Positions 353 through 24,301 of a DNA stretch of 24,403 nt are shown one piece after another. The stretch's first letter is position 1. Every line of letters starts with the position of its first letter. A program made the translations under genes and the position numbers. The notes below the pieces were generated by a model that saw only the letters and a list, made by a program, of their open reading frames with translations, searched no databases and was not told where the DNA came from. The DNA is from an uncultured Pseudomonadota bacterium (lineage in GTDB: Bacteria; SAR324; NAC60-12), in NCBI GenBank assembly GCA_913020725.1, contig CAJWCD010000042.1:1-24403 (forward strand), in the 5' to 3' direction.

Positions 353-1639
353 TTGAACGAGACCACCCAACCTAAGCCCACTCCGGAAGCCAAGCAAGAC
401 GGCGGCAAGCTCGTCTTTTTCGAGTTCATTGTGCTGGTGGCGGGGATGCAGTCGTTGACGGCACTGTCCATCGACGCCATGCTGCCCGCGTTTCCGGACA
501 TTGGACGCGATCTCAATGTGTCCCCTGCGAACGATGTGCAGTTGGTGATCATGGTGATGTTCCTGGGCATGGCGCTCGGTCAACTGCTCTATGGCCCACT
601 GGCCGACAGTCTTGGGCGTCGGCGTCCCATCATGCTTGGTTTTGTGATCTATCTGAGCGGCAGTGTGGTTTGCCTGTTTTCGGGAACCCTGACGATGCTG
701 CTGCTGGGGCGCTTTTTACAAGGCTTCGGCAGTGCCGCCTTCCGCATCGTCACAGTCGCCATCATCCGGGATCGCTTTGAAGGACCTACGATGGCGCGGG
801 TCATGTCCTTCGTGATGACAATCTTCATCCTCGTGCCGGTTGTTGCTCCGGCCATTGGACAGGGGGTTCTGTGGCTGGCCGGGTGGCGGGCAATTTTCGC
901 AATGTTTTTGGTCAATGGGCTGCTGCTGCTGCTTTGGTTTCTCATGCGTATGCACGAAACCCTGCCTCTGGAAAGGCGTGTGCCGCTTTCCTTCACACGC
1001 TCGCTGAACGCCGCACGGGAAGTCTTCCGGATTCGTGCCGCACTCGGCTACACGCTTTGCATCGGACTGATGTTTGGTCCGTTCATGGCCTACCTCAGCA
1101 CCGCGCAGCAACTCTTTGCGGACGTCTTTGACCGGGGCGAGGAACTACCCGTGTTCTTCGCCATTCTGGCCTTGTCTTTTGGAGCCGCATCTTTGACCAA
1201 CGCAAGCCTGGTGATGAAGTTTGGCATGTACTCGCTGTCCCTCTGGAGTGCGTGTACGTTCACGGGGGTCGCCCTCCTAAGCTGGGTGGCGTTGCAAACC
1301 GTGTTGCCCGAACCGCCACTGTGGGGCTTCATGGCTTGCCTGATGCTGACCTTTTTCTGCCAAGGCTTGATGTTCGGGAACCTCAACGCGATGGCCATGC
1401 AACCGTTGGGACACATTGCGGGCGTGGGGGCCACCATGGTCGGGGCGCTGTCGATGCTGGTGTCACTGCCTGCGGCCTACGTCATTGCTCAGGCATTCGA
1501 CGGCACAGTATTGCCGCTGGTGACAGGCTACGCCGTGTTCGGCGTAGCCGTGGTGGCAACCATGCTCTGGACGAAACGGGGAATCTGCCGCCGCCCTGTG
1601 ACGCAAGCCTCGGCGGGATCGTCATCCGTGGAAAGCTGA
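353..1639 (+). CDS. Bcr/CflA-family (DHA1) MFS drug:H+ efflux transporter
   Basis: 428 aa with about 12 hydrophobic segments; ALSIDAMLPAFP, motif A GPLADSLGRRR, LLGRFLQG, IRDRFEG, ETLP. TTG start with AAGGAAGG upstream. Confidence 0.9.
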   Translation: MNETTQPKPTPEAKQDGGKLVFFEFIVLVAGMQSLTALSIDAMLPAFPDIGRDLNVSPANDVQLVIMVMFLGMALGQLLYGPLADSLGRRRPIMLGFVIYLSGSVVCLFSGTLTMLLLGRFLQGFGSAAFRIVTVAIIRDRFEGPTMARVMSFVMTIFILVPVVAPAIGQGVLWLAGWRAIFAMFLVNGLLLLLWFLMRMHETLPLERRVPLSFTRSLNAAREVFRIRAALGYTLCIGLMFGPFMAYLSTAQQLFADVFDRGEELPVFFAILALSFGAASLTNASLVMKFGMYSLSLWSACTFTGVALLSWVALQTVLPEPPLWGFMACLMLTFFCQGLMFGNLNAMAMQPLGHIAGVGATMVGALSMLVSLPAAYVIAQAFDGTVLPLVTGYAVFGVAVVATMLWTKRGICRRPVTQASAGSSSVES

Positions 1640-1676
1640 ATTCCAAACGGTAGGGGGGCGGGATCACCGGAGTCGG

Positions 1677-3749
1677 TCAAGCCGACATCAGCACGTCCAG
1701 ACTGAATCCTGCCACGGAATGCTGGCCGGAAACGGATTCGCCACTTGAAAGCGTGGAAAGCACCCGCTGCCATGCTCCTGCCGGAAGCCGGAACTCGACG
1801 GGGTTGTCGTAGCAGTTGATGTGAATCCGCAAGCAAGTGGGTTGGTCGAAGGACGGTGAATCCTTGCGGACCTCTAATACCAAAGTCCGGACCATCTCTG
1901 AAAAATCCGCAGCAGCGTTTTCGGTGTTGTGCCACTCCCACTTGGAATTTCGCGCAAACAGGAATTCGGCGAAGTGCTTGCGGAACGCGATCACTTTTTG
2001 CGTGAACCCCAGCAGGTCACAGTTTTGCTCCACGAGTTGCCAATCCACCCAAGTGAGTTCGGAGTCGTGGCAGTAGGCGTTGTTGTTGCCGTGCTGAGTG
2101 CGTCCAAACTCATCTCCGGCCACCAACATGGGAGTACCTTGGGCGAGGTGCAAAAGCGCGTGGAAGAGTCGTAGCTTCCGCTGGCGTAACTCCAGCACCA
2201 CCGTATCCTCGGTGGCTCCTTCGATTCCACAGTTCCTCGAAAAATCCGGAGTGTGTCCGTCGCGGTTGTCTTCGCCGTTGGCGTGGTTGTGTTTTTCGGA
2301 ATACGCCACCAGATCGTGCAACGTGAGGCCGTCATGCGCACTGAGAAAATTGACACTCAAGCACCGCCGCTGTGTTGATCTGCCGAACACCTCCGGACTT
2401 CCGGAAAGGGCGTCGGCAAGTCCGGCCATCTGCCCCTTGTCGCCCCGCACCGCTCGCCGGATGGTGTCCCGGAAGCGATCGTTCCATTCGGCCCACTCCG
2501 CTTGGGACGCTTGCCCAAGTTGATAACCGCCTCCGGCATCCCACGGTTCTGCGATCAGCTTGATGCCCACGAGTGCGGGATCATCCTGCAGTTTCCGGAA
2601 GAAATCCGGCGTGTCGCGCAGGTTTCCAGCAGAGTCTCGGTTGAGGATCGGGGCGAGGTCGAAGCGAAAACCGTCCACACCCATCACCTTCGCCCAATAC
2701 TCCAAGCTTTCCCGCAACAAGCGCCACACGAGCGCATGGTCACAGCGCAAGGTGTTTCCGCATCCGGAGTGATTGACGAGTTTTCCGCCGGCATCGTGCA
2801 GGTACCAGCTTTCCGGATCGAGCGCCTTGAAGTGATCGCTTGGCCCCTCCTCGTCCAGTTCCGCCGTGTGGTTGAACACGACGTCCAGCCAGACTTCCAA
2901 CCCTGCTTCGTGGACGGCATCAACCATTTCCTGAAACTCGGCAGTCGCATTGCGGGGATCGGCGGCGTAGGACGTTTTGGGGGCGAAAAACAGCAGCGGT
3001 GAATACCCCCAATAGTTGACGAGCGGCTGGTCAGTTTCCGGATGCTTCTGGGGATTCTCGCACTCGTCAAACTCAAAAACGGGCAGCAGTTCAATGACCG
3101 TCACGCCCAGCTTCCGGAGTTGGGGCAGCACTGAAATCAAACCTCGGTAGGTGCCACGCTCGGCGGGCAAAACCGGGGAACTCGCATGGCGGGTCAGCCC
3201 CCGGAGGTGAGTTTCGTAGACGATGCTTTGCTCCAGCGGGAGCTTGGGCTTGGCCGGACGATGACGGGATTCCGGCTCTGGACGGACTGTAGCCAACCGT
3301 CGCATGCCCTCAAAGCGAAACCCGTGTGGGCGCACCCGGATTTGCAGGTCGCCGTTGGCCGTTTGCACAAACGCAAGCGGCTGCTCCCAGCGTTCGCCGC
3401 CCCAGCATTCCCGTGCCCACGGATCGAGGATTCGATGACGGGAGCCGTCCGCGTGTTCGATTTCGATGAGGTAGGTCAGCCGTTCCGGAAGCGGCGCACC
3501 GTCCGGCCATTCGGTTTCCCACGCCCAGCAAGCGTCAGAGCGGTGCTGTTCCGGATGGAGTTCTACAGTCACCAAGCACGGCTGGCAGGTTCCCGGCTCC
3601 GGAAGCGGGTTGCCATCGTAGAAGTGGTAGGAAACGCGCTTCGCAAGTCGGGCGGCGAGTGCGAATTGTAAACGACGACCGACCCAGCGCGAACCGAATC
3701 GGGCGTCAGGGCATGACAGGGGTTGGAGGATGAGCGGGGTTCCGCTCAT
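1677..3749 (-). CDS. glgX: Glycogen debranching enzyme / isoamylase (GH13, GlgX type)
   Basis: 690 aa; YETHLRG, NYWGY, DVVFNH, SGCGN, catalytic DGFRFDLA / IAEPWD / SAHDGLTL, YSEKHNHANGEDNRDG, GDEFGRTQHGNNNAYCHD. Confidence 0.92.
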   Translation of the reverse strand: MSGTPLILQPLSCPDARFGSRWVGRRLQFALAARLAKRVSYHFYDGNPLPEPGTCQPCLVTVELHPEQHRSDACWAWETEWPDGAPLPERLTYLIEIEHADGSRHRILDPWARECWGGERWEQPLAFVQTANGDLQIRVRPHGFRFEGMRRLATVRPEPESRHRPAKPKLPLEQSIVYETHLRGLTRHASSPVLPAERGTYRGLISVLPQLRKLGVTVIELLPVFEFDECENPQKHPETDQPLVNYWGYSPLLFFAPKTSYAADPRNATAEFQEMVDAVHEAGLEVWLDVVFNHTAELDEEGPSDHFKALDPESWYLHDAGGKLVNHSGCGNTLRCDHALVWRLLRESLEYWAKVMGVDGFRFDLAPILNRDSAGNLRDTPDFFRKLQDDPALVGIKLIAEPWDAGGGYQLGQASQAEWAEWNDRFRDTIRRAVRGDKGQMAGLADALSGSPEVFGRSTQRRCLSVNFLSAHDGLTLHDLVAYSEKHNHANGEDNRDGHTPDFSRNCGIEGATEDTVVLELRQRKLRLFHALLHLAQGTPMLVAGDEFGRTQHGNNNAYCHDSELTWVDWQLVEQNCDLLGFTQKVIAFRKHFAEFLFARNSKWEWHNTENAAADFSEMVRTLVLEVRKDSPSFDQPTCLRIHINCYDNPVEFRLPAGAWQRVLSTLSSGESVSGQHSVAGFSLDVLMSA

Positions 3750-3785
3750 GTGAATTCGACGAGGGAAACGTGACGTTCCCCCATT

Positions 3786-4421
3786 TCAGTGGCGGGCCTG
3801 ACGGCGGTTGAACTGCTGCATGGTCGTAGAGGCTTCCTCCTTGACGGGTTTGGCCTTGGGCAGCACAGACTGGATCAGCGCAATCCAAGAGTCCAAGCTG
3901 GCCTCCGTGACCCTTGTGCCGTGGCGATAGGCGTGGTGCGGATGGGATTCCTTGTAGCGGTTCTTGAGTTGTTCCAGCGTCTTGAGGTTTTGCTGATCGA
4001 AGATGGAAAAACGCTGAATCAGGTCGGCGGTTGCAAAGCGGCTGGGATTGTGAAGTAGCTTGATGACGTCCGGCTCAATGTCCTGCCCAGCAGCTTCGTA
4101 TTGCCCAAAAATCATCTGGCGGATGCAGATGCTGGTGATGTTGTCCTGATCCTGATGCCGAGTCCACAGCACCTCCAGCAGCACCTCTCCGGACTTGCTG
4201 CCGTCTGGATTCACCTCCAGCCGGACCTGACAGCCGGGTTTGAACTCCTGCTCCGTGTAGAGTCCGGCTCCGGAGGTGGTTGTGTCTTGCAGGGCACCGT
4301 CGCCCTTGTACTCCATTGGACTCAGGGAACCATCGGCATCGAGGGTGAGCCACTCGATCAGTTGAGCGGAGATGCCCTCGAAGCGGTCAGAAGAAGTGGA
4401 GTCTTTGATGAAGTGAAACAT
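3786..4421 (-). CDS. Hypothetical protein with a degenerate PilZ-like N-terminal beta-barrel (211 aa)
   Basis: Start placed at ATG 4421 (GGAG upstream; the ORF track start is 4508). The segment GALQDTTTSGAGLYTEQEFKPGCQVRLEV...LEVLWTR resembles the PilZ DxSxxG barrel. No RxxxR motif. Confidence 0.55.
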   Translation of the reverse strand: MFHFIKDSTSSDRFEGISAQLIEWLTLDADGSLSPMEYKGDGALQDTTTSGAGLYTEQEFKPGCQVRLEVNPDGSKSGEVLLEVLWTRHQDQDNITSICIRQMIFGQYEAAGQDIEPDVIKLLHNPSRFATADLIQRFSIFDQQNLKTLEQLKNRYKESHPHHAYRHGTRVTEASLDSWIALIQSVLPKAKPVKEEASTTMQQFNRRQARH

Positions 4422-4525
4422 GGTGGCGGTGGTACTCCAGGTTGACGAAACCAAGCGTTTGATCTGGCAAGACCATCCAAGCATCCCATAATCGTCTTCA
4501 TCCCGCAAGGATTATGTGCCGAGGC

Positions 4526-4552
4526 TAAAGTTTTCGCTCCAATTGCCGATGA
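4526..4552 (+). promoter_or_regulatory. Sigma-28 (FliA) promoter of the flagellin gene
   Basis: TAAAGTTT (4526-4533), 11-nt spacer, GCCGATGA (4545-4552): one mismatch to TAAAGTTT-N11-GCCGATAA, 35 nt before ATG 4588. Confidence 0.88.
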
Positions 4553-4587
4553 CAGGGATGACAGGAGTTTCACCTCGGCAGAAGGCC

Positions 4588-6192
4588 ATGAAAATTCTCA
4601 AAAACGCCCTTGCGCTCAGTACCCTCCGGGAGACAAACAACGCGCACAAAGGGGTGATCGACAGCATCAAAAAACTCAGTTCCGGGCAGCGCGTCAACAC
4701 ACCCGTGCAAGCTCCGGCGGCACTGATTGCGGCCAATCAACTCAATGCGCATCAGGTGGGCACCCGGCAGGCCTTCCAGAACACGGAGGAGTCGGTCACG
4801 TTGATCCAGACCGCAGAGGGCGGGCTGTCCAAGATCAACGACATCCTCACCAAGATGAAGCAGATCGCGCTGCATGCAGCCAACGGTGCTGTCAACGATT
4901 CCATGATGCGTGAAGCCGATCAGATGGAAATCGAGTACCTCTTGGAATCGGTGGACCGCATCACACAAAACACGCAGTTCAACAAGAAGCGCCTGCTCGA
5001 CGGCTCGATGGGGACCAATGGCACGGTCGTCGGAGATCACCTTCGTTTTGTCGGTGCCACTCCAGAGTCCCCCTCGACCCCGCTGGAAGGCTTTCCCATC
5101 GACATCACCCAGATCGCCACCCGGGCCTACAAGGCGGGCACAGTGCCTGTGACTGTGGATAGCTTTGGCGAGGGCTTTCAGATCACGCTGCTCGAAAGCG
5201 GCAAGATGGTCACGATGGACTTCCGCAAGGGCAAGCTCGACGAGCAGATTCAGCACCTGATCAGCAAGCATAAGGAGGTTCCGGAACGCTTCCCGGAGGC
5301 AGACACCTCCCGGCAAATCCGGAAAATCATCGAACATGCCCTGCGCGAGGAGGCAGAAAACCAGCAGCTAAATTTGGAAATCCTCTTTGACGAGCAGGGA
5401 GTCCTCAACATCCAGCACAAGAAATACGGCGACCACGCCAGCTTCTCGGTGGCCTGCACCACTCCGGGCATCATCACCGCTCAGGCCCTTGCCTCGGAAC
5501 CGAGCGAACCGGGACAGGACGTGCAGGGCCGCATTGCCGGAGACATGACCAACGGACACGGGCAGTACCTCACCGCGCCTTTAGGAACCACGGCCCAAGG
5601 AGCCTCCATTCGCTACACGCTCCCGGACGAGTTGGCCACCGTCCCGGTCCTCAACGAGGCTGGGCTGGTGGTGGGGCACCGCCGCATCAAGACCAATCCA
5701 GAGCAAATCATCGGCTCGAACAAGAACCCGATCATTGAGGGCTACCTGCACCTCACGCAGCAGTCTCCGACCTTCCAGATTGGCTATGAAGCCTCTGAAC
5801 AGAACGCGGTCGTCTCGCTTCCGGACGTGAAAGTCTTCAAACTCGGACGGGATCTTGACAATCAGAGCAACTTCGAGAGCCTTGGGGACATTGATGTCTC
5901 AACGGTGCAGGGCGCGTTCGATGCGTCCAAGCTCATCAACAAGGCAACCGACGAACTCTCGATCATGCGCGGAGAACTGGGTTCCTTCCAGCGCAACCGC
6001 ATCGAGCGCACTTTGGACTTGCTCTCCAAGAAGAACGAGAACCTGGCGGCGGCGCAATCCACAATTCAAGACACGGATGTCGCCGTAGAGATTTCCAACC
6101 TTGCCCGCGAGCAACTCCGGCTCAACGCCTCTCAGTCCATGCTTGCCCAAGCCAATCAGGAATCCGGAAAAGTCCTCAGCCTCTTGCGTTGA
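4588..6192 (+). CDS. fliC: Flagellin (divergent, large central domain; 534 aa)
   Basis: N-terminal KLSSGQRVN...LIQTAEGGL..I...L.KM..IA.HAANG and TQFNKKRLLDGS; C-terminal RGELGSFQ...ENLAAAQSTIQDTDVAVE...MLAQANQ...VLSLLR. Start moved to ATG 4588 because the sigma-28 promoter overlaps the longer ORF and flagellin homology begins at MKI. Confidence 0.9.
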   Translation: MKILKNALALSTLRETNNAHKGVIDSIKKLSSGQRVNTPVQAPAALIAANQLNAHQVGTRQAFQNTEESVTLIQTAEGGLSKINDILTKMKQIALHAANGAVNDSMMREADQMEIEYLLESVDRITQNTQFNKKRLLDGSMGTNGTVVGDHLRFVGATPESPSTPLEGFPIDITQIATRAYKAGTVPVTVDSFGEGFQITLLESGKMVTMDFRKGKLDEQIQHLISKHKEVPERFPEADTSRQIRKIIEHALREEAENQQLNLEILFDEQGVLNIQHKKYGDHASFSVACTTPGIITAQALASEPSEPGQDVQGRIAGDMTNGHGQYLTAPLGTTAQGASIRYTLPDELATVPVLNEAGLVVGHRRIKTNPEQIIGSNKNPIIEGYLHLTQQSPTFQIGYEASEQNAVVSLPDVKVFKLGRDLDNQSNFESLGDIDVSTVQGAFDASKLINKATDELSIMRGELGSFQRNRIERTLDLLSKKNENLAAAQSTIQDTDVAVEISNLAREQLRLNASQSMLAQANQESGKVLSLLR

Positions 6193-6260
6193 GGGGACTT
6201 CCCTTTTCTGACAATCCCCGCTAAAATTCTTGGGAAGTGAACCGAACTTCCCAAACCTTT

Positions 6261-7601
6261 ATGGACACCCTCGCAGAGTGGATTGGCCAGCATCGCATCA
6301 GCGAGGTCGAATGCCTCACCCCGGACCTCACCGGCATCGCACGCGGCAAGATCATGCCCGCGAGCAAATTTCTCAAAAACGAAGGGCTGCGGCTTCCGGA
6401 ATCCGTTTTTCTGCAAACTGTCACCGGCGAGTGGCTGCCGTTTGAAGACCTCTTCCGGGTCGATCCCGCAGAAATTGACATGCAACTCCGTCCGGATCCG
6501 GAGACGATCTGCCTTGTGCCGTGGGTGGAGGAACCAACCGCACAGGTGATCCACGACTGCTTCCACCACGACGGCATGCCCGTGGAGCTTTCTCCGCGCA
6601 ACGTGCTACGCCGCGTCCTCAAACTTTACGAAGAAGACGGGCTGCGCCCCGTGGTGGCTCCGGAACTGGAGTTCTACCTCACCAAGATCAACAAGGACCC
6701 CGACTACCCGCTGACCCCGCCGGTGGGACGCTCCGGGCGCCAGGAAGTGACCGGGCAGTTTTACGGCATTGATGCCCTCAACGAGTTCGACCCGCTCTTT
6801 GAGGAAATGTACGAATACTGCGAGGCGCAGGAACTCGACATTGATGCTCTCACCCACGAGGCAGGCAGTGCCCAGATGGAGATCAACTTCATCCACGGCG
6901 ATCCCATGCGCCGCGCCGATCATGTGTACCTCTACAAGCGCACGATGCGCGAGACCGCCTTCCGGCACAAGGTCTATGCGACTTTCATGGCCAAGCCGAT
7001 GTCGGACCAGCCCGGCAGCGCGATGCACGTCCATCAATCGGTCATTGACGTAAAGACCGGACGCAACCTCTTTGCGCAGGAGGACGGTGCGAATTCGCAG
7101 GAGTTCCTCGCCTACATCGCCGGACTCCAGAAATACCTGCCCTCGGCAATGCCGCTGCTGGGGCCGAACATCAACTCTTATCGTCGGCTCCACCCGGACA
7201 ACTCTGCGCCCATCAACGTGCAGTGGGGCGTGGACAATCGCACTGTCGGACTGCGCGTTCCTGTCAGCGGGGCCGAGAATCGCCGCGTGGAAAACCGCCT
7301 CGCCGGAGCCGACGCTAATCCTTACCTCGCGCTTGCCACCACCCTCGGTTGCGGATTGCTGGGCATCCGCGAAAAACTTATTCCCACCGAGGCGGTCAAG
7401 GGGAGTGCCTACGATTTTGACTACGAACTGCCCCGCAATCTTGAAGAAGCGCTGCGGGCGATGGAGGATTGCGAGAAGTTGGAAGAGCTTTTCGGAGAGA
7501 AATTTGTGAAAGTCTATGTTGCACTCAAGCGTAGCGAGTTTGAAGCGTTTTTTCAGGTCATCAGCACTTGGGAGCGCGAGTACTTGCTGCTCAACGTTTA
7601 A
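6261..7601 (+). CDS. spuB: Glutamine-synthetase-family gamma-glutamylpolyamine synthetase (SpuB/PauA/PuuA type)
   Basis: EVECLTPDLTGIARGK, LRLPESVFLQTVTG, SPRNVLRRV, APELEFY, QMEINF, TFMAKP...GSAMHVHQS, RRVENRLAGADANPY, WEREYLLLNV; directly upstream of an spuC-type aminotransferase. Start is ATG 6261 or GTG 6237. Confidence 0.88.
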   Translation: MDTLAEWIGQHRISEVECLTPDLTGIARGKIMPASKFLKNEGLRLPESVFLQTVTGEWLPFEDLFRVDPAEIDMQLRPDPETICLVPWVEEPTAQVIHDCFHHDGMPVELSPRNVLRRVLKLYEEDGLRPVVAPELEFYLTKINKDPDYPLTPPVGRSGRQEVTGQFYGIDALNEFDPLFEEMYEYCEAQELDIDALTHEAGSAQMEINFIHGDPMRRADHVYLYKRTMRETAFRHKVYATFMAKPMSDQPGSAMHVHQSVIDVKTGRNLFAQEDGANSQEFLAYIAGLQKYLPSAMPLLGPNINSYRRLHPDNSAPINVQWGVDNRTVGLRVPVSGAENRRVENRLAGADANPYLALATTLGCGLLGIREKLIPTEAVKGSAYDFDYELPRNLEEALRAMEDCEKLEELFGEKFVKVYVALKRSEFEAFFQVISTWEREYLLLNV

Positions 7602-7628
7602 CGTCAACCTCTTACACCAAATCATTCC

Positions 7629-8996: not shown

Positions 8997-9084
8997 AGGG
9001 GGCAGAGGCTTTAGCTTGATTTTCTGAACAAGCGGTTCATAATTCATTCGGTTTGATTGCACAATCCCTTTCCGGAGACTCGAA

Positions 9085-10143: not shown

Positions 10144-10151
10144 GCAAGTGA

Positions 10152-10185: not shown

Positions 10186-10214
10186 CTCCGGAACCACTTT
10201 GAAAGGATGAACAG

Positions 10215-11135: not shown

Positions 11136-11149
11136 AGAATCCTATTGCC

Positions 11150-13357: not shown

Positions 13358-13376
13358 GACGATTTGCACATTATTG

Positions 13377-13413: not shown

Positions 13414-13433
13414 GACAGCAAAAACTCTGTGGA

Positions 13434-15149
13434 TTACTTCCGAGTCCAATCGGCGATGTTCCAGAGTTCCGAATCCCAAGCGTTCATTTGAACGTTTTTG
13501 AGGGAATTGGCGTGGGCCGAGACGCTGCCACGGTGGATCAGCGGAATCATCGCATAATCCTGCATCAGCATGTCGTTCATCTGCTTGGCCAGTGTGATCC
13601 GGTCTTTGAGCGCCGCCGTCTTGGACATTTTTGCAGAGAGGGCATCGTAGTCCGGGTGACACCAGCGCGGCATGTTGCCACCGCCCCACTTGTTGGCCTT
13701 GCGGGAGATTTCCTTGCAGGTCCAGCCGGACATGTAGGTTTCCGGGTCCGTGCCGCTGAAATTGTTGGTGTACATCTCGATGTCCGCGAAGAACTTCTGG
13801 TAGGTGTCGGGACTGGCGATGTCCCCGCCGAAGAACACGGACGCGCTGAGGTTGCGCAACTCGGTTTCCACACCAATCACCCTCCACATCTCCTTGATGA
13901 AGGCCTGCGTGGCTTGGCGCACGGAGTTGGTGGAGGTTTGGTAAAGGATCGAGAGGCGCACTCCGTCCTTTGCGCGAACGCCGTCCGAACCGCGCTTCCA
14001 GCCCGCTTCGTCTAGGAGTCGGTTGGCTTCTGCAGGATTCGGGGTCTTGCACTCGTCGTTGGCCGTTGAGGCGTAAATGGCCGGTGCAGGCAGCACATTG
14101 CAACTGATCTTGCCAGCCTGACCATAGCCAGCCTCCACCAACACTGCGCGGTCAATGGCGAGCGAGAGGGCGCGGCGCACCGCATAGTCTGTGAGGAACG
14201 GATGCGGATTGCCGTTGTTGTTGCCGCCCATGTACTCCGCACGGTTTTCGCCTAAGGCCGGATCCGGGTTGGTGAAGTTCACCATCAACCGTTCCACGGA
14301 GGTGCCAAAGGCCGAGACGACAGTCCCTTTTCCGGCCTTTTCCATTCTGGTAAGGATCTCCGGCTCAACCTGAAGGTTCCAAGCGTAGTCCATCTCGCCT
14401 GTCTCCAAGACCGAGCGGGCGGAGGAAACCGCGTCGCCCCCACCCTTGAAGACCAAGGTGTGGAACGCCGGCTTGTTGGAGTCGCGATAGTTCTCGTTGG
14501 CTTCAAAGACGATCACGTCGTTCGGCTTGAAGTCCTTGACCTTGAACGGTCCCGTTCCAATCGGGTAGAAATTCTGCTTGGTGCAAGCCTGAGCCTTCTG
14601 ACCTTCACAGCCCTTGAACTGGGCCTTCTGGAGGATCGGTCCGTTGTAGCCGACAAAGGCACTGTACGGGAAAGGCTTGGCGACCGTGAAGTCAATCCGA
14701 ACCGTGTGGGCATCAACGGCTGTGACCGACTTGATGTCATTGTAATAATTCGACTGTGTGCAACCCGTGTCCGCATCGGTGCAGTATTCGTAGGTGAACA
14801 CGACATCAACTGCGGTTAGTGCCGAACCGTCGGACCACTTGATGCCCTGCTTGAGTTTCCAAGTGATCGAGGTCAGGTCTTCCGCCACACCGCCATTGGC
14901 GACTGTGGGGATTCCCACGGCGAGATACGGGACCAGATTGCCGTTGTGATCGTAGCGAGCCAACGGCTCAAGCACAACCGAGGACGCTTCGAGTTCCTTG
15001 GTTCCCCCCGAAAGATTGGGGTTCATGGTTGAGGGCGCCTGCCAGTAGAGCAGGTTGAGTTGACCGTCCCGGCCCCGCTGGGCTTGGACTGTGCTTGCCA
15101 ACGCCACGGCGAGCGCCAGGGTCAGCAGAGCAGCGATTGTTTTACGCAT
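13434..15149 (-). CDS. oppA: Peptide ABC transporter substrate-binding protein (SBP family 5; 571 aa)
   Basis: Sec signal MRKTIAALLTLALAVALASTVQA after AAGGAG; LYWQAPSTMNP, WKLKQGIKWSDG..LTAVDVVFT, PIGTGPF, VRRALSLAIDR, WNIADW. Confidence 0.88.
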   Translation of the reverse strand: MRKTIAALLTLALAVALASTVQAQRGRDGQLNLLYWQAPSTMNPNLSGGTKELEASSVVLEPLARYDHNGNLVPYLAVGIPTVANGGVAEDLTSITWKLKQGIKWSDGSALTAVDVVFTYEYCTDADTGCTQSNYYNDIKSVTAVDAHTVRIDFTVAKPFPYSAFVGYNGPILQKAQFKGCEGQKAQACTKQNFYPIGTGPFKVKDFKPNDVIVFEANENYRDSNKPAFHTLVFKGGGDAVSSARSVLETGEMDYAWNLQVEPEILTRMEKAGKGTVVSAFGTSVERLMVNFTNPDPALGENRAEYMGGNNNGNPHPFLTDYAVRRALSLAIDRAVLVEAGYGQAGKISCNVLPAPAIYASTANDECKTPNPAEANRLLDEAGWKRGSDGVRAKDGVRLSILYQTSTNSVRQATQAFIKEMWRVIGVETELRNLSASVFFGGDIASPDTYQKFFADIEMYTNNFSGTDPETYMSGWTCKEISRKANKWGGGNMPRWCHPDYDALSAKMSKTAALKDRITLAKQMNDMLMQDYAMIPLIHRGSVSAHANSLKNVQMNAWDSELWNIADWTRK

Positions 15150-15313
15150 TACGTTCTCCTTGAAAAGGAACAAGGTCGGCAACCAAATGTCGCCCACCCT
15201 TGGTTAAGAACTCCGGAACTCCGGGGTTCCATGAACCCAGAGCCTCCCCTATGGAAACTCCGGGGTGAAAACTCTAGATCCTTATGAATTTTGATTTTGA
15301 AAACGGGTATTTC

Positions 15314-15381: not shown

Positions 15382-15524
15382 TTTGGAAGTTCATTACCCA
15401 ATTTGCTTGTCAAAACTCATTAGAGCCAACTCGCAATGACTTGCGAGCGGCCATTGATCTGAAGCTGAAAAACCATTGCCAAATTTCGAGAAAGTCGCAA
15501 GCCCCTCCTGTGCTCCTTCCCCCT

Positions 15525-16508
15525 TCATTTTGAAAAATGGCAGGCCACTTGGTGTCCAGACCGCAACTCCCGCCACTCCGGAGGCTCGTAGTAGCACTGC
15601 TCCTGCGCCACTGGACAGCGGGTGCTGAACGGACAACCTGGGGGCGGATTCGCCGGACTGGGCACATCCCCCATGAGGATCACGCGCTCACGCTGGGCCT
15701 CCTTCAGTGGATCGTGAATCGGCACTGCCGAAAGCAGCGCCTGCGTGTACGGATGCAGCGGTTCTCGGTAGAGCGACGCGCTGGGGGCCAGTTCCATGAG
15801 CTTGCCGAGGTACATAACCGCGACGCGATCCGCGATGTGCCGGATCATGCTGAGGTCGTGGGAGATGAACAAATAGGTGAGGCCGTACTGCTCTTGGAGG
15901 TCTTCGAGCAGATTGACGACCTGCGCCTGAATGGACACGTCCAAGGCGGCAATGGGTTCGTCACAGACAATGAACTCCGGATTGAGCGCAAGCGCCCGTG
16001 CAATGCCGATGCGTTGCCGCTGGCCTCCGGAGAACTCATGGGGGTAGCGGTTCGTGAACTTGGGGTTCATGCCCACCGATTGCAGCAATTCCTCCACCCG
16101 TTCCCGGCTTGCCTTGCCCTTGGCGATACCGTGTTCCTCCAGCGGTTCCCCAATGATGCTGCCCACCGTCATGCGGGGATTGAGGCTGTCCTGCGGATCC
16201 TGAAAGATCATCTGCATTTTGGGCCGCAGTTTGCGCATCCCCTCCGTGCTTAAACGAGTGAGTTCCTCACCCCGGAAGGCAACATTGCCCCCGGTGGCCG
16301 GATAGAGTTGCAGGATCACGCGGCCTGCGGTGGATTTGCCACAACCACTCTCGCCGACAAGCCCAAGGGTTTCGCGCTCCCTGATCTCGAAGGAGATGCC
16401 GTCCACCGCCTTGACAGAACCCACCTCCCGCCGAAAAACCCCCTTGGTGATGGGGAAGTGCTTGGTGAGGTTCTCCACCTTGAGCAAAACGGGATTTGCT
16501 GCGCTCAT
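15525..16508 (-). CDS. oppF: Peptide ABC transporter ATPase (OppF/DppF type)
   Basis: KAVDG, Walker [10 protein letters not shown], signature [21 protein letters not shown]-terminal GCPFSTRCP...C...VACH. ATG 16508 overlaps the upstream TGA (ATGA) and follows AGGAG. Confidence 0.9.
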
Positions 16509-17509
16509 GGTTTCGCCTCTCCTGTTGCCGTGTCCCACCAGCAGGCCAGCTCGTGTCCGTCTGCAACGCTTTCCAAGAGTGGGTTTGCTTGCAGGCAACG
16601 CTCGAACACATGTGGACAGCGCGGCGCGAAGGGGCAACTGACGGGTTTGTGATGCAAGTCCGGGGGCTGGCCTTTGATGCTTTCCAATCGTTCGGAGCGG
16701 TCGCCGTCCATGTCGGGAAGCGTGCGCAGCAGCGCTTGGGTGTAGGGGTGTTTGGGGTTGCTATAAAGTTCTTTGACACCCGCCCGTTCGACCACGAAGC
16801 CGCCGTACATCACCATCACGCGATCCGCGATTCCCGCAACCACGCCTAAGTCGTGGGTGATCCAGATGATCGCCATGCCGAGTTCCTGCCGGAGCCGCTT
16901 GACGAGATCGAGAATCTGCGCTTGGATCGTGACGTCGAGCGCGGTGGTCGGCTCGTCTGCAATCAGCACCTTGGGGTCGCAGGCCAGCGCAATCGCAATC
17001 ATCACCCGCTGCCGCATGCCTCCGGAAAACTGATGCGGGAAATCGTTCAGCCGATTCGCCGCCATCGGAATGCCCACCAATTCCAACAATTCTCCCGCCC
17101 GTTGCCTTGCCACCTTGCGGGGCATCTTCAGATGCTCCCGGAGCGATTCCGTGAGTTGGTAGCCAACCGTCAGTACCGGATTCAGCGAAGTCATCGGATC
17201 TTGGAAAATGAAGCCGATGCGCCCGCCCCGGACGTGCCGCATCTTGTTCGGGTCGAGCTTGAGCAAGTCCTCGCCCTCAAAGTAGGCTTCTCCGGAAACG
17301 ATCTCAGCAGGGGGCATGGGCAGGAGCTTGAGCAGCGACATCATCGTCACGCTCTTACCCGAACCACTTTCGCCGACGATGCCGAGCAGTTCCCCTTCGT
17401 TCAAACTGAAGCTGATGCCGTTGACCGCATAGACCATTCCGTCCTGCGTACGAAAACGGGTCACCACGTCCTTGACTTCAAGCACGGGCGAAGCTGCGGT
17501 GTGCTGCAT
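16505..17509 (-). CDS. oppD: Peptide ABC transporter ATPase (OppD/DppD type)
   Basis: [52 protein letters not shown]...C...LACW. Confidence 0.9.
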
Positions 17510-17593
17510 TCCTGCTAGGGGAATTCTGGATGTGTGAGTGTTCAGAACTTGGAGGATAATCCGTGTTGGTCTCCAACTGACAAATGTGGATGA

Positions 17594-17621
17594 ATGATAC
17601 AGGACACAAATCCATTGTCAA
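17594..17621 (-). promoter_or_regulatory. Sigma-70 promoter for the peptide ABC operon
   Basis: Minus strand TTGACA (17621-17616), 16 nt, TATCAT (17599-17594), about 85 nt before the oppD ATG. Confidence 0.6.
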
Positions 17622-17680
17622 TGCTGATCGGTGATTATTTCTGCATTCTTGTTCTTCTCCGCTCCAAGTACGCAACTCGC

Positions 17681-18709
17681 TCACCCCTTGGGCCAAGTGT
17701 CGCTGAGGCGGTAGCCGTCGGGCCAAGGGTCACGAGGATCGAGCATGAGGGTCTTCATGCCCGTGATCCACGCCCGGCCTTGGATGGAGGGCAGAATCGC
17801 CGCGCGGTCGCCGCAGCGTGTCTCAGCCTCGATGCGGCAGTCGAAGCGCGAGTCGATCAGGGAGAGACCAACGTAGGGTTCGCCAACGGCCAACTCGCCT
17901 CGCGTGTGCAACACTGCCATGCGGGCCGAGCAGCCTGTGCCGCAGGGGGAGCGGTCCAGTTTTCCGGGGCGGATGACCACGGCGCTGCGCCCAGTTTTCA
18001 CGCCGTCCACGACTTGCACTGGGCCCGTGATTTCGCAAAAAGACAAATGCCGCCACTCCGGAAGTTCCGGATGCGAAAACCCCAACTGCTCGTTGGCCGC
18101 AGCGGTGATGCGCGTTCCAACCGTCGCCAAATCACGGGCCTCGTCCGGAGTCAGCGAAAATCCCAAGCTTTGGGCTGCAATCAGCACAAAGGAATCGCCT
18201 CCAAACGCGGTGTCCACGGTCAGCGTCCCGATGCCTTCCACTTCCAGCGAAGCCTCCAGTCGATCCGCAAACGAGGGCAGGTTGTGCACCCGGATGGCCT
18301 CCACACGCCCGTCCCGGCAAGTTGCCCGCACCTCGACCACCCCGCCCGGAGCCTCCAGTTTCATGAGGGTTTCCGGTTCCTGCATCGGCACCCGTCCCGT
18401 TTCTAGCAGCACCGTCGCCACGCAGATCGAGTTGGACCCGGACATCGGCGGGGTGTCCGCCGGTTCCATGATGATGAACGCGGCGTCCGCCTCCGGATGC
18501 TTGGGAGGAACCAGCAGGTTGACGTGCCGGAAGACTCCGCCTCGCGGTTCGTTGAGAACGAAGTTACGCAGGGTTTCATCTTTGGCAATGAACCGCGACT
18601 GTTCCCAAATCGTCTTGCCCGGAGGGGGCGTGATCCCACCGACGATCACGTCTCCGACTTCCCCTTCGGCGTGGCATTCGACAAGGTTGATGGCCCGTTT
18701 GCTTTGCAT
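17681..18709 (-). CDS. Proline racemase superfamily protein (hydroxyproline epimerase/dehydratase-like; Ser/Cys dyad; 342 aa)
   Basis: ATG 18709 after [57 protein letters not shown]. Confidence 0.88.
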
Positions 18710-18790
18710 TGTTTGCTTTACCTCAAAAAGTGCAGAACGTAGGCATCGCCCGCTCCCACAGTTTCTTGAACACGGGCTGAGAAAATTTAA

Positions 18791-18799
18791 ATTGTAGCA
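18791..18799 (-). promoter_or_regulatory. Extended -10 element upstream of the racemase-family gene
   Basis: Minus strand TGCTACAAT (TGn plus TACAAT), about 80 nt before ATG 18709, in an AT-rich patch. Confidence 0.45.
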
Positions 18800-18928
18800 T
18801 ACTGTCGAGCGCGACTCCACTCCCCAAACTCCCCTACTTGCCCTTCTTGGGGCAATGTGCTGTCCTGTTTTTTTATAAAGTCCCTCGCCGAGGGAACCCA
18901 GCAACCCAAATCCGTGAAGAGGCAAATC

Positions 18929-21900
18929 GTGGTAAACGAAGAACGAACGAGTGTGAAAAAATCCGTGGAAGCAAGCATTGCAGAGGGCGTGAAGTGGCGC
19001 TGCATCGGACCCTCCCGTGGGGGGCGGGTGGTGGCGGTGGCCGGAGATCCGGTTAACTCACAGATGTTTTATTTTGGTGCGGCGGCAGGCGGTGTTTGGA
19101 AAACCGAGGACGGCGGCACTTACTGGGAGAACATCTCGGACGGCTTCCTCGGCAGTGCGGCGGTCGGCGCCCTTCAGGTGGCGCCTTCGGACCCCAATGT
19201 GATCTACGCGGGCATGGGAGAAAGCACCATCCGGATTGACGTTTCCTACGGAGACGGCGTTTACAAATCCACCGATGCGGGCAAAACGTGGACCAATCTC
19301 GGACTCAAGGAAACCCGGCACATCGGCGAAATCCGCATCCATCCGGACAATCCGGACGTGGTCTATGTTGCTGCGTTGGGACATGCCTTTGGCCCCAACA
19401 AAGAACGCGGGGTCTATCGTTCCAAGGACGGCGGACAAACGTGGGAGCAGATTCTCTTCCGCAGTGAGAAGGCCGGGGCGATTGACCTGACGATGGATCC
19501 GAACAACCCGCGCATCCTCTACGCCTCGTGCTGGGAAGCGTACCGCGACTTCTGGAGCCTCAACAGCGGTGGACCGGACAGCAGCCTCTATCGCTCCACG
19601 GACGGGGGTGACTCTTGGACGGAAATCACCAACAACCCCGGACTGCCAAAGGGGACTTTGGGCAAGATCGGCGTGGCAACGGCTCCAGCACAAAGCGGGC
19701 GCGTCTGGGCGATCATTGAAGCCGAAGACGCCGGACTTTACCGTTCGGACGACGGCGGGGAGAGTTGGATTCGCACCTCCGGGAACCGCGACCTCATCCA
19801 CCGCCCGTGGTACTACTGCCACGTCTTCGCGGATCCACAACACGCGGACACGGTTTATCTCACCAACCTGCAAATGTGGAAGTCCTCCGATGGCGGCGCC
19901 ACCTTCAAGGAAATCACCACCCCGCACGGCGACAATCACGACCTCTGGATTGATCCGAACAACCCACAACGCATGGTGCAAGGCAACGACGGCGGCGCGA
20001 ATGTTTCCTACAACGGCGGAAAAACGTGGTCCACGATCTACAACCAACTCACTGCGCAGTTCTACCGCATCGACACCGACAACCAGTTTCCTTACCGCGT
20101 GTACGCGACGCAGCAGGACAACACCAGCATCAGCGTTCCCAGTGCCAGCGAGTACGGAGCGATCACGCTCAACGAAACCTTCCTGCCCGGAACTGGCGAG
20201 AGCGGCTTCATCGTCGTCAAACCGGATGATCCGGACATTGTTTACATCGGCGCCGTCGGCAGCTCTCCCGGAGGCGAAGGGGCGCTCCAGCACTACAACC
20301 ACCGCACCAAGCAATTGCGGCTCGTCAACGTCTGGCCGGAAGAGTGCTTCGGCTGGGCGGCCAAAGACCTCAAGTACCGCTTCTCATGGACTTTTCCGAT
20401 CAGCTTTTCACCGCATAACACCGGAACGGTTTACGCCTGCGGGAATCACGTTTTCTGCACCCAAAACGAAGGACACAGTTGGGAAACCCTCAGCCCCGAT
20501 TTGACCCGTGCCGATGCAAACAAGCTTGGTGTTTCCGGAGGATTGACGGTGGACAGTAGTGGCGCCGAGCATTACGGCACCATCAGCGCCTTCGTCGAAT
20601 CACCGCACCAACCCGGAGTGTTCTGGACCGGAAGCGACGATGGACTCGTCCATGTCTCCCGCGATGGCGGAGCAAACTGGGAGTCGATCACGCCTCCGGA
20701 TCTGCCGGAGTGGGCGCTGATTTATTGCATCGAAGCCTCCGCGCACGATCCGGAGACCGTGTACCTCTCCGCCACGCGCTACAAGCTCGACGACTACCGA
20801 CCCTTGCTCTACAAGACCACCGATGGTGGCAAAAGCTGGTCGAGCATCAACGGTGACTATCCGGAGACTGAAATCAGCCGTGTGATCCGTGCAGACCCGA
20901 CCTGCCCCGGATTGCTTTTTGTCGGCTCGGAAACCGGGATTTTCGTGAGCCTCAACGACGGGGAAAATTGGCAGCGGTTGCAAGGCAACCTGCCGGTGGT
21001 TCCGGTCTATGACCTGAAAATCAAGAACGGCGATTTGGTGGCTGGAACCCACGGACGCGCCTTCTGGATTCTGGACGACCTCACGCCGCTACGCCAACTC
21101 AGCCAGCAGCAAGCCACGGAGGGCATCCGTAGCTTCCCGCCACGCCCGACGTATCGTTGCACCTTGCATTGGAGCACGAACATTTTCCTCGGCGACGGCA
21201 AGAACTACAGCCCGGCCTTTGGCTTGTCCGGAACCACTTACGAGGTCAGAACTCCGGAAGGTGAGAAATCCTTCAAGCACCTCGACCTTGGAGAGAATCC
21301 ACCGCAGGGTGCGATCCTCCACTACCACTTGGACAAGGAACCAGAGCAGCCCATTGACATCACGATTTTTGATGCGAACGGCAAGGAGATCGAAACCTTC
21401 TCCAGCAAGAAAACGGATGATGCAACTGCCGATCAATCCAAGGAGGATGTGGAGGACGAGGACGACAAGAAACCCGTCGTTCCGGCGCAGCCGGGACTCA
21501 ATCGTTTTGTCTGGAACCTGCGCTATCCCGGACCCAAGGAAAAACTTGACAAGTCGCTGGAGGTACCCGGCTACAAGCCTCTGGGACGCGGCGAAGGCGG
21601 TGGGGTCAGAGGTCCGGTTGCCACGCCCGGAACCTATCAGGTGCGGCTCAAATGCGGAGAGGCAGAAACCACCCACGCCTTCGAGATTCTGAAAGACCCT
21701 AGGCTGGACACCACTCCGGAGGATTTTGCGGAGCAGTTCGAGTTGTGGACAAAAATCACCGAGAAGGTGTCCGCTGCGAACAAAGCACTCAACCGCCTGC
21801 GCCGCCTCAAGCAACAGCTCAAGGAGTTGTCCGGACGGGACCGTCTCAAAGGTTCCGAAGGCGAGATTTGGCAGGCCATCACGGCTTTGCAGGAACGCTT

Positions 21901-22174
21901 GGAAGCGGTGGAGAACATGCTCGTGCAGACTCAGCATGAAACTCCATCGGATCGTTTGCGGCATCCGGCGATGCTCAAGGATCGGCTGGAGGGTTTGGTC
22001 TGGTCGGTCGCGGTGGCCGATGCCCGACCTCCGGAACAGGTGCAGGCGGTTTACAAACACCTCAGCGGACAGATTGACGAACAACTGGCCCTGCTGAAAA
22101 AACTGGAGTCTGCGGAAGTGGTTGCCCTCAACACTCGACTAAAAACCGAGGAGGTTCCGGCCCTTGAAGGCTGA
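18929..22174 (+). CDS. BNR/Asp-box (Vps10/sortilin-like) beta-propeller protein, putative glycosyl hydrolase, with C-terminal helical tail
   Basis: [12 protein letters not shown] start motif; 11 Asp-box-like repeats ([40 protein letters not shown], etc.); [39 protein letters not shown]. Start probably GTG 18929 (GAAGAGG upstream) or GTG 18953. Confidence 0.82.
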
Positions 22175-22222
22175 AGTGCTGCGGTTCCCAGTCGATTCAT
22201 CACAGCTAACCGGAAATCCCAC

Positions 22223-24301
22223 ATGACCCAACGCGACCCTCGTTACGACATTCTCTTTGAGCCGGTGCAGATTGGTCCGGTGACGGCCCGGAATCGCTTT
22301 TATCAGGTTCCACACTGCAACGGGATGGGGTATTTGCGTCCCAACACGCTGGCGGCCATGCGCGGGATCAAGGCGGAAGGGGGTTGGGCAGTGGTCTGTA
22401 CGGAGGAAGTGGAAATCCACGCCACCTCAGACAACGGTTCAGCGGCGGAAGGGCGTCTGTGGGATGACGGAGATATTCCGGCATTGGCAAAAATGACGGA
22501 AGCCGTACATGAACATGGTGCATTGGCCGGAATAGAATTGGTGCATGGCGGTTATTCCAACGCCAATCACTACAGCCGGATTCCACCAATTGCACCCAGC
22601 GGGATTTCTGTCAATTCTTACGATCCAGTGCAAGCGCGGGCGATGAACAAAGCCGATATCCGGAACTTTCGCAAGTGGCACCGTCAGGCGGCTTTGCGAG
22701 CCAAGCAGGCTGAGTTTGATTTGGTTTATGTCTATGCCGGACACAGCCTGACTTTGTTGATGCACTTTCTTTCCCGCCGCTTCAATCAACGCACAGACGA
22801 ATACGGAGGGAGTCTGGAAAACCGGGTGCGCCTCTTTCGAGAAGTGCTGGAAGACACCAAGGAGGTAGTGGGGGATCGTTGTGCTGTTGTGGTGCGTTTT
22901 GCAGTTGATGAACTACTCGGCCCCCAAGGCATCACCTCCGAAAATGAGGGGCGGGAAATTGTGGAAATGCTGGCAGAATTGCCCGATCTTTGGGATGTCA
23001 ATATCAGTGAATGGCACAACGATTCGGCGACCTCTCGTTTTGAAAAAGAGGGCTATCAGGAGCGTTACATCAGTTTTGTAAAATCTCTGACCTCCAAACC
23101 AGTGGTGGGCGTGGGACGCTATACTTCTCCGGACACGATGGTCTCACTGATTCAGCGAGGTGTGATGGACATGATCGGCGCAGCGCGGCCATCCATCGCT
23201 GATCCGTTTCTGCCCAAGAAAATCGAGGAAGGACGCCTCGATGAAATCCGGGAATGCATCGGTTGCAATATCTGCGTAGCAGGAGATTGGCTCGCGGTGC
23301 CGATGCGTTGCACACAAAACCCCACGATGGGGGAAGAGTGGCGGCGCGACTGGCATCCTGAGAGGATCGCAGCTCGTAAAAGTGACGATGGTGTGTTGGT
23401 GGTTGGCGGTGGGCCTGCCGGATTGGAATGCGCTCTGGCTTTAGGAAAACGCGGATACCGTGTGATTTTGGTGGACGCCTCCGCAGAACTTGGCGGACGA
23501 GTCAGTCGAGAATGCCAACTGCCCGGGCTTGCTGAGTGGGGGCGTGTCCGTGATTACCGGGTGGGGCTTTTGGACAAGTTGGAGAATGTGACGGTTTACC
23601 CGGAAAGTTTGCTGAAACCAGAAGACATTCTTGAGTTCAGCGGGAAGGATGAATTTGATTTTGCCCATGTCTTTCTGGCAACCGGCGCCACTTGGAGACG
23701 AGACGGAATTGCACGACAACACCGTGAGACCATTTCCGGATTGGAAGCAGTGACCGTGTTGACTCCAGATGATCTCATGGATGGTGTACCCGCAAACGGG
23801 CAAGTGGTCATCTTTGATGATGAACACTACTACATGGGCGGAGTGCTTGCCGAAAAACTGCGTTTAGAGGGGCATGATGTGCGGTTGGTCACTCCAGCTC
23901 CAGATATTTCCACTTGGACGCACCAGACGATGGAGCAAACTCGCATTCAGACGCGGCTGCTGGAACTTGGTGTGGAACTCACTCCACAACACAACCTCGT
24001 CTCGGTTCATCCGAGTGCCGTCGAACTCGCCTGTGTGTTCACGGAACGGAGAGTCAGGCTCTCTTGTGACACCTTGGTGTTGGTCACGGAACGCTTGCCC
24101 AACGACAACCTCTACCACGCTTTGCAGGCCAATCCGAAAGAGCTTGTCAGTGCCAGCATCAAGACGATCCAGTCGATCGGGGATTGCCTCGCTCCCGGAA
24201 TCATCGCCGCCGCAGTGCATTCCGGACACCTCGCTGCACGGGAGCTTGAAGCGGAGCATCCGGGAGAAGTTCCGTTTAGGCGCGAACGGGTGATGGTCTG
24301 A
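22223..24301 (+). CDS. Trimethylamine/histamine dehydrogenase-family flavoprotein (cysteinyl-FMN, 4Fe-4S), histamine-dehydrogenase-like
   Basis: RDPRYDILFEPVQIGP..NRFYQVPHC (FMN-linked Cys), KAEGGW, YxxH (YAGH), RTDEYGGSLENR, ARPSIADP, CIGCNIC-x11-C, GGGPAG, IGDCLAPG. Confidence 0.88.
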   Translation: MTQRDPRYDILFEPVQIGPVTARNRFYQVPHCNGMGYLRPNTLAAMRGIKAEGGWAVVCTEEVEIHATSDNGSAAEGRLWDDGDIPALAKMTEAVHEHGALAGIELVHGGYSNANHYSRIPPIAPSGISVNSYDPVQARAMNKADIRNFRKWHRQAALRAKQAEFDLVYVYAGHSLTLLMHFLSRRFNQRTDEYGGSLENRVRLFREVLEDTKEVVGDRCAVVVRFAVDELLGPQGITSENEGREIVEMLAELPDLWDVNISEWHNDSATSRFEKEGYQERYISFVKSLTSKPVVGVGRYTSPDTMVSLIQRGVMDMIGAARPSIADPFLPKKIEEGRLDEIRECIGCNICVAGDWLAVPMRCTQNPTMGEEWRRDWHPERIAARKSDDGVLVVGGGPAGLECALALGKRGYRVILVDASAELGGRVSRECQLPGLAEWGRVRDYRVGLLDKLENVTVYPESLLKPEDILEFSGKDEFDFAHVFLATGATWRRDGIARQHRETISGLEAVTVLTPDDLMDGVPANGQVVIFDDEHYYMGGVLAEKLRLEGHDVRLVTPAPDISTWTHQTMEQTRIQTRLLELGVELTPQHNLVSVHPSAVELACVFTERRVRLSCDTLVLVTERLPNDNLYHALQANPKELVSASIKTIQSIGDCLAPGIIAAAVHSGHLAARELEAEHPGEVPFRRERVMV

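Follow-up and report, generated by a model that had tools for sequence, protein, structure and literature searches.

The question raised by this locus is why a single six-base palindrome, TCCGGA, should recur so often in one stretch of bacterial DNA. The stretch, hereafter the window, comprises 24,403 nucleotides from an uncultured bacterium of the SAR324 lineage and is contig C42 of genome G000 (3.45 Mb, 204 contigs, 93% complete). It contains 64 TCCGGA sites (positions 382–24226), against 9.87 ± 3.22 in 100 dinucleotide shuffles (shuffle maximum 18) and 7.6 expected from base composition (57.7% GC). The initial annotation of the window, which had counted about 60 sites by hand where about 8 were expected and had likened the word to the highly iterated palindrome HIP1 of cyanobacteria, was accurate: 63 sites lie inside its interval 493..24226, only the site at 382 was missed, and the positions it quoted (493; 2392/2400; 6491/6497; 18057/18066; 19342/19351) and its counts for two genes (Table 1) are all correct. 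The sites, dispersed at 2.6 per kb, sample locally a motif that extends through the whole genome and is real and clade-specific, and the spacing between neighbouring sites follows the turn of the DNA helix, in opposite senses in related genera.

TCCGGA is the commonest hexamer in G000, with 7,675 sites (2.23 per kb, or 2,227 per Mb), and all 141 contigs longer than 8 kb carry 1.2–3.2 sites per kb. Low-GC or foreign-looking transport operons make up the longest stretches without a site, and the ribosomal operon is slightly less occupied (25 of 104 usable positions). The ratio of observed to expected counts (O/E) is 7.35, 6.51, 3.37, 2.43 and 1.00 under Markov models of orders 0–4, with TCCGGA the top hexamer at orders 0–2. 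The enrichment survives correction for words of the CCGG level (order 3) and for codon usage, and vanishes against TCCGG/CCGGA (order 4), which is part of what the initial annotation had named as refuting its reading, so that T before CCGG and A after it are favoured independently and the motif is graded. The discrete hexamer of the initial annotation therefore stands as the top word of a graded motif, not as an all-or-none one; the order of preference is TCCGGA, then CCCGGA/TCCGGG (next best word, 2.5-fold), then other NCCGGA.

Most other palindromes behave differently: 35 of the 64 six-base palindromes of G000 are below 0.5 of expectation at order 2, and GCCGGC is depleted to 0.21. In genus g1, which is represented by the whole of G000 and by stretches of G001 and G002, most GC-rich six-base palindromes are reduced to 0.1–0.3, with no C5 methyltransferase found there. 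CCWGG is depleted in the same genomes (0.19, 0.21 and 0.45, respectively) and not in G034, G045 and G014 (1.1–1.2); since this depletion is limited to g1, it is separate from the TCCGGA motif.

Genes of G000 were called with a codon-model script of our own (3,031 open reading frames). Coding sites number 7,087, against 2,084 in 10 within-gene synonymous shuffles (3.40-fold), and the excess is not confined to one codon phase (3.6-, 1.9- and 4.2-fold by frame). TCCGGA occupies 7,087 of the 21,372 positions where the protein permits it, i.e., one third, against a neutral level of 8.1% derived from codon usage elsewhere; in intergenic DNA the enrichment is 5.0-fold (274 sites in 199 kb). The window agrees with the genome, 61 of its 64 sites being inside called genes on both strands (18, 8 and 35 in codon phases 0, 1 and 2) and three between genes, as the initial annotation had described in outline.

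The motif could be a by-product of codon or dipeptide preference (Ser-Gly, Pro-Glu/Asp), alpha-helix periodicity or intrinsic DNA bending. The dipeptides PE (1.66), SG (1.48) and PD (1.42) are indeed among the most enriched in G000, but the reversed EP (0.79) and GS (1.01) are not, and the five-fold intergenic excess speaks against this explanation as well. The arrangement of the sites also counts against it. Spacings between pairs of TCCGGA in G000 track the DNA helix with a period of ~10.55 bp, with troughs in the pair count at 12–13, 20–23, 31–33, 41–43, 52–53 and 62–64 bp. Between 16 and 47 bp, the mean pair count per spacing is 2.4 for sites on the same face of the helix and 18.8 for sites on opposite faces, uniform placement giving 17.6. 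For nearest neighbours at 1.5–5.5 turns, the mean cosine is −0.41 (n = 484, Rayleigh p ~1e-36), and the signal has faded by ~15 turns. Amplitude of the phasing is 0.45 in real genes and 0.07 after synonymous shuffling, and the three spacing classes modulo 3 are concordant (−0.24, −0.49 and −0.45); accordingly, protein helices and codon phase are not the explanation, even though the synonymously usable positions are themselves mildly phased (−0.14).

When synonymously usable positions 16–47 bp from a site are considered, with each pair counted from both ends, occupancy is 40 of 666 (6.0%) for those on the same face, compared with 356 of 1,002 (36%) for those on the opposite one. Same-face occupancy is thus near the neutral 8.1%, which means that a second same-face site adds nothing, rather than being clearly harmful. 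Spacings of 7–10 bp are exempt from the rule, with normal occupancy (27–39%). In G000, the 40 pairs that do share a face are dispersed, giving no sign of an origin cluster.

The effect is specific to the word. Phasing at z > 7 is confined, in a set of 1,541 scored hexamers, to TCCGGA, the words overlapping it and CCCGGA. The sign of the full sites recurs in their near-matches, at −0.33 for CCCGGA in G000 and at +0.4 to +0.5 in genome G034. No dinucleotide lattice was left in G000 after masking of the TCCGGA-family words, the periodicity of flanking dinucleotides having an amplitude of at most 0.01. A lattice of the wrapping or gyrase type was rejected on this ground; in G034, weak CC/GC terms lie near 3 sigma. 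As a separate observation, A-tract autocorrelation in G001 (loci L065–L074) is seemingly anti-phase (cosine −0.25 at 10.35 bp), unlike in G000 and G034, with overlapping matches inflating its significance.

The distribution of the motif was surveyed in 72 genomes of the phylum, with genome sizes rounded and densities without GC correction. At least 1 TCCGGA per kb was found in 16 genomes, all within four genera, g1, g2, g5 and g12 (21 genomes). The remaining 51 genomes are all below 0.7 per kb, and the neighbouring genus g3 has 0.13–0.24 per kb. One single-gene tree unites the four genera (93/89, under the starred threshold) with g3 as sister; the DnaA tree leaves their base open. In family f7 (G065, G067–G071), the reverse of the motif-rich clade is seen, TCCGGA being strongly avoided (0.005–0.07 per kb) and the control word AGGCCT common. 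Across loci L343 and L353–L359 of genome G043, between 4 and 38 sites are present per 20 kb, in step with GC, which suggests large unameliorated islands.

For the 72 genomes, pairs at 30–33 and 51–54 bp were counted as same-face and pairs at 35–38 and 46–49 bp as opposite-face; face bias was tested in the 34 genomes of family f1 and genera g30–32 whose counts allowed it. All three genomes of g1 are anti-phase (96 same-face and 370 opposite-face pairs), all 12 genomes of g12 are in phase (1,480/434; 11 at p < 0.05), and so are the three of g5 (151/66; one significant). Genus g2 is divided (283/163, 166/117 and 96/155 in its three genomes), and this split may reflect a gradual phase shift rather than a flip of sign. 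Genome G012 has 7/23, and nine f7 genomes are flat (138/130). The g12 pattern peaks at 20–21 and 29–34 bp; in three g12 genomes, pairs at 19–22 and 30–33 bp are 2.3–6 times the uniform expectation. The phasing amplitude in G034 (400 kb) is +0.64 ± 0.11, with the same period as in G000; for G014 and G045, 200-kb samples were too noisy to fix the phase, and whole-genome counts were used. Pairs at 7–10 bp reach 0.66–0.91 of the uniform expectation in five genomes tested.

Outside SAR324, a scan for clustered sites returned 80 loci, 71 of scorable length, and five genomes were tested for phasing. Two Succinivibrionaceae genomes and one Methanosarcinaceae genome contain 2.4–2.7 TCCGGA per kb (O/E 5–6) at loci L422, L383 and L417, and all three are unphased (68/55, 76/68 and 79/67 same-face and opposite-face pairs); the other two, G072 and G076 (12/4 and 48/118), owe their sites mainly to tandem repeats and were left out. 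Enrichment of TCCGGA is therefore not unique to SAR324, and among the genomes tested its phasing is seen only there. Recurrence of the enrichment in unrelated phyla is what a by-product would allow; the flat spacing in those genomes and the reversal of sign between genera of SAR324 are not. Together with the synonymous shuffles, the spacing classes and the hexamer comparison, the flat spacing largely refutes the by-product explanation for the phasing, and altogether it is very improbable. In a separate set of 80 viral loci, 10 were TCCGGA-rich; one of them, the phage contig stretch L255:1-20050, contains 76 TCCGGA in 20 kb at 32% GC (O/E 24). Comparison of the TCCGGA-rich phage loci with G000 gave no candidate reader in common, the shared genes being what we take to be ClpP-, dUTPase-, RecA-, SSB-, helicase- and integrase-like genes.

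Persistence of the sites was examined against the two congeners. Four-fold positions in sites diverge by 0.122 against 0.221 expected in G002 and by 0.266 against 0.399 in G001, so that synonymous site positions are conserved above control. In a larger comparison (512 and 593 kb of DNA, 364 and 471 kb of it aligned), turnover of sites was fast, mostly via transitions to CCCGGA and TCTGGA. Pairs that include one or two lineage-specific sites also avoid the same face (cosines −0.33, −0.39, −0.45 and −0.36; n = 88, 30, 70 and 53). The density and geometry of TCCGGA persist, and individual positions do not. Gains could not be told from losses by a three-way comparison, the outgroup having few sites in common, and metagenome contigs made only 40 of 231 variants visible, too few for a selection test.

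Enrichment beyond codon usage and a fast turnover in which the spacing rule is kept thus go together with a pairwise effect that is specific to one word, has the period of B-DNA, reaches ~100–150 bp and reverses its sign between genera; the latter four features would require a molecule able to sense a pair of sites spatially. The explanation we consider probable, with some reserve, is weak selection for binding by an abundant architectural protein that reads pairs of sites. TCCGGA would be the preferred, graded site of a putative DNA-binding protein or complex, abundant in one SAR324 clade, which would bind two sites simultaneously if these share a helical face and are within ~2–10 turns of each other. 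Each site would give a small benefit, probably through bridging or compaction of the chromosome. In g1, a second same-face site within ~50 bp would be redundant, either blocked or binding, in cis, the other head of the complex already engaged, and would stay near neutral frequency; in g12, the same geometry would add avidity and be favoured 2–6-fold. The more far-reaching form of this proposal, that a new class of two-headed sequence-specific architectural protein organises the chromosome of the clade by reading thousands of TCCGGA marks within genes, and that its pairing geometry has been adjusted or inverted from lineage to lineage (cooperative on the same face in some genera, exclusive there in others), with codon choice and even dipeptide content rewritten throughout the genome, is put forward only tentatively, as rather less probable than its negation.

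Several observations weigh against binding by an architectural protein. There is no excess of TCCGGA over its own 5-mers TCCGG and CCGGA, the half-sites themselves being enriched. Only 602 of 883 and 398 of 1,079 G000 sites are shared with the congeners in the larger comparison, and whole-site retention is mid-field among hexamers, so that selection per site is weak at most. A zigzag alternation of faces was not seen in 166 triplets (0.007 against a null of 0.063 ± 0.050), and the blocking model does not fully account for the exempt spacings of 9–10 bp, close to a complete turn. Because G000 served to choose the spacing windows, these are tested by its relatives alone, which as kin do not provide independent cases. 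Among known proteins of this kind, neither SeqA (PF03925) nor the histone fold gave a match in G000, and HU/IHF was rejected as reader, there being no lineage-specific paralogue and a copy number of about three whether a genus is motif-rich or motif-poor. A gene missing from G000 alone is soft evidence, since dnaA too is missing from this assembly, which is 93% complete. Finally, the near-neutral occupancy of same-face positions fits a blocked site-creating enzyme equally well.

Such an enzyme is the basis of the main rival explanation, which we judge unlikely: a neutral drive, with little selection, in which a repair or conversion enzyme makes TCCGGA from near-matches and a bound protein blocks it on the same face (g1) or recruits it there (g12). 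Besides the occupancy of 6.0%, this explanation accounts for the fast turnover through transitions to CCCGGA and TCTGGA and for the independent enrichment of the 5′ T and the 3′ A, as expected of a ratchet acting per strand. Efficient conversion should, however, deplete its precursors, and in both G000 and G034 the near-matches have the same sign as the full sites; decay of old sites could also yield near-matches of the same sign. No Vsr was found in G000, and a neutral drive still needs a further protein. Of the maintaining system proposed in the initial annotation, helical phasing favours the protein-binding branch, and the branch of methylation or Vsr-type repair is not supported, with neither PF00145 nor Vsr matched in G000.

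The search for a protein that reads, writes or repairs the motif gave one gene of interest. C5 methyltransferases (PF00145) are present in 30 of the 72 genomes of the phylum and in none of the three g1 genomes; in g12 and g2 they occur just as fragments, in 2 of 12 and 1 of 3 genomes, respectively. DndC (TIGR03183) gave no match in G000. A match to the RHH family on contig C121 presumably belongs to the antitoxin of a toxin–antitoxin pair, and a screen on codon bias, aimed at an abundant small basic protein, ended up selecting foreign DNA and yielded no candidate. The sole DNA-methyltransferase-like gene of G000, on contig C49 (L001:514-2253, minus strand), is an orphan of the alpha-class N4/N6-like type, two genes downstream of a gidA/mnmG-like gene. 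Its protein clusters with putative N6/N4 enzymes; PF02086 matches just 44 of 253 positions, and the predicted fold is confident (pLDDT 86), with weak matches to Dam and Trm11 first (E ~7e-5).

This gene is the core of a methylation-linked explanation after Elhai's model, in which the C49 protein would mark or bind TCCGGA/CCGG and a repair enzyme or SeqA-like reader would maintain the sites. In its favour, the gene is the only one of its kind found, is present in 19 of the 21 genomes of the motif-rich genera, and encodes a charged (R/K/D/E-rich) N-terminal tail of 127–343 aa in g1, g2 and g12, against 28–78 aa in motif-poor genera. It is nevertheless order-wide, being present in 42 of the 72 genomes, including 5 of 6 in the motif-poor g3 and 13 of 15 in family f2, and was not found in G012, itself anti-phase, or in G034 (87% complete); despite having its longest charged tail in g1, g2 and g12, it does not track the motif. 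Its catalytic motif IV begins with N, C or R in the three g1 genomes, at 92–95% identity, and is degenerate at this residue in g4, g5 and g7, so that the catalytic residue is unconstrained there, the S-adenosylmethionine-binding motif being invariant. With TCCGGA also lacking the GC step of the model and C5 enzymes missing or fragmentary as above, methylation is an improbable explanation; for the orphan methyltransferase that the initial annotation proposed to look for, the C49 gene is the one candidate. The C49-type protein may bind nucleic acids without being catalytic; in the far-reaching proposal above, such a methyltransferase-fold protein, relaxed in its catalytic residue and bearing a long charged tail, would be one candidate reader of site pairs.

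The gene dnaA (DnaA C-terminus) is absent from the G000 assembly and present in 66 of the 72 genomes, including both congeners, which indicates an assembly gap, the origin region being probably unassembled. In the 7 regions where dnaA was located, out of 13 examined, no TCCGGA cluster occurs within 3.5 kb of it. Genomes G008, G017 and G060 each contain 7–16 matches to the DnaA C-terminal domain, mostly in short or ~335-aa frames, some of them broken; these are probably mobile elements.

A DNA-uptake or recombination signal, spread by transformation drive in the way proposed for HIP1 and for uptake sequences, would likewise produce sites that are dispersed, graded, independent of frame and sparse in foreign-looking operons, and HIP1 has been linked to transformation (PMC13756078). 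The helical-face rule for pairs, with its flipping sign, counts against it and makes this explanation most unlikely. We know of no uptake mechanism that imposes such a rule with a sign depending on the genus.

Within the window itself, none of the 11 pairs at 70 bp or less falls at the trough spacings of 11–13, 20–23, 31–33, 41–43 or 52–53 bp. Close pairs are 8, 48, 49 and 66 bp apart in the glgX-like gene, 8 bp belonging to the exempt class and 48–49 bp to the opposite face, and 9, 26 and 54 bp apart in the BNR/Vps10-like gene (Table 1). The name glgX is that of the initial annotation.

Table 1. Features of the window and their TCCGGA sites
Feature	Position	Strand	Basis or remark
glgX-like alpha-amylase-family gene, 12 sites in all three codon phases	1677..3749	-	PF00128
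Head-to-tail tandem TCCGGA pair, spacing 6 bp	6491..6502		Rare: 4 genome-wide
Intergenic TCCGGA	9071..9076		One-base insertion variant abolishing the site in 2 of 4 metagenome runs
Intergenic TCCGGA	10187..10192		Site count and gene calls
Intergenic TCCGGA	15212..15217		Site count and gene calls
ABC substrate-binding protein gene (family 5), zero sites	13434..15197	-	Longest site-free gene in the window
TCCGGA pair, spacing 9 bp (permitted short spacing)	18057..18071		Second such pair at 19342/19351
BNR/Vps10-like propeller gene, 13 sites in all three phases	18857..22174	+	Pfam and site count

Pfam matches were obtained for 15 of the 16 window proteins, which, apart from a flagellin, are products of ordinary genes of metabolism and transport. 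A 240-aa open reading frame without a Pfam match (3786–4508, minus strand) stands head to head with the gene of the 558-aa flagellin (4516–6192, plus strand), which has a long central insertion. The best three named full-length relatives of one core gene of the window belong to two SAR324 cluster bacteria and one Ca. Lambdaproteobacterium. Window DNA is present in 19 of the 23 sequencing runs listed, 18 of the 19 being marine, and near-identical re-assembly of the window was obtained in all four seawater metagenomes examined.

To our knowledge, HIP1 has been without a reader or an agreed function for three decades. A word phased in opposite senses in related genera provides a physical handle on a HIP-type motif at the scale of base pairs. 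It also supplies positive controls, negative ones (near absence in g3; unphased genomes of other phyla) and sign-reversed ones for finding the protein, and predicts the spacings that this should bind. HIP1 itself is therefore suggested to be worth testing at single-base resolution, below the published 25-bp bins. In the literature searched, largely outside subscription journals, no paper was found to describe this pattern, be it for TCCGGA as a HIP, for the methylome or palindromes of SAR324, or for helical phasing of a palindrome.

Among known systems, TCCGGA is the recognition site of the BspEI/AccIII/Kpn2I restriction–modification systems. Unlike sites of type II systems, it is enriched 7-fold rather than avoided, and no cognate methyltransferase was found; Dnd phosphorothioate modification differs in that dndC has no match in G000. 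The closest parallel is HIP1 (GCGATCGC) with the alternate HIPs GGCGCC, rCCGGy and GCsGC (Elhai 2015, PMC4390886; Xu et al. 2018, PMC5861425). TCCGGA resembles HIP1, as the initial annotation held, in being a short palindrome at 2,227 per Mb, within the HIP densities of about 500–2,500 per Mb given by Elhai (PMC4390886), in occurring in all frames and between genes throughout a clade, in being kept, if weakly, above control, in affecting its one-off variants too and in having no known reader. It differs in phylum, in word, in the absence of a cognate methyltransferase among the genes found and in the strength of enrichment (7-fold against 15–300-fold). TCCGGA works like a HIP but fails two features of HIP1, the excess over sub-words and the GC dinucleotide, which Elhai's G-meC repair model needs. 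Periodicity described for HIP1 is at 10–90 kb, in bins of at least 25 bp, whereas that of TCCGGA is 10.55 bp with a flipping sign.

At the helical scale, the nearest system is Dam/SeqA of Escherichia coli, in which GATC pairs about 10 or 20 bp apart, and less than ~50 bp, are read on one helical face, and the genome-wide periodicity of GATC spacing is ascribed to codon usage (PMC2912659). The g12 peaks match this reading of pairs; same-face pairs, the SeqA feature, are favoured in g12 and g5 and avoided in g1, and, unlike in Dam/SeqA, neither SeqA nor a true Dam was matched and no cluster was seen beside dnaA in the 7 regions of relatives where it was located. A 10–11 bp dinucleotide periodicity under selection has also been reported (Atzinger and Lawrence 2020, PMC7537859). 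Like the present signal, it is helical in scale, genome-wide and selected, with its binding partner inferred; it consists of dinucleotides, whereas the signal in SAR324 belongs to one hexamer family, is anti-phase in g1 and has no surrounding dinucleotide lattice.

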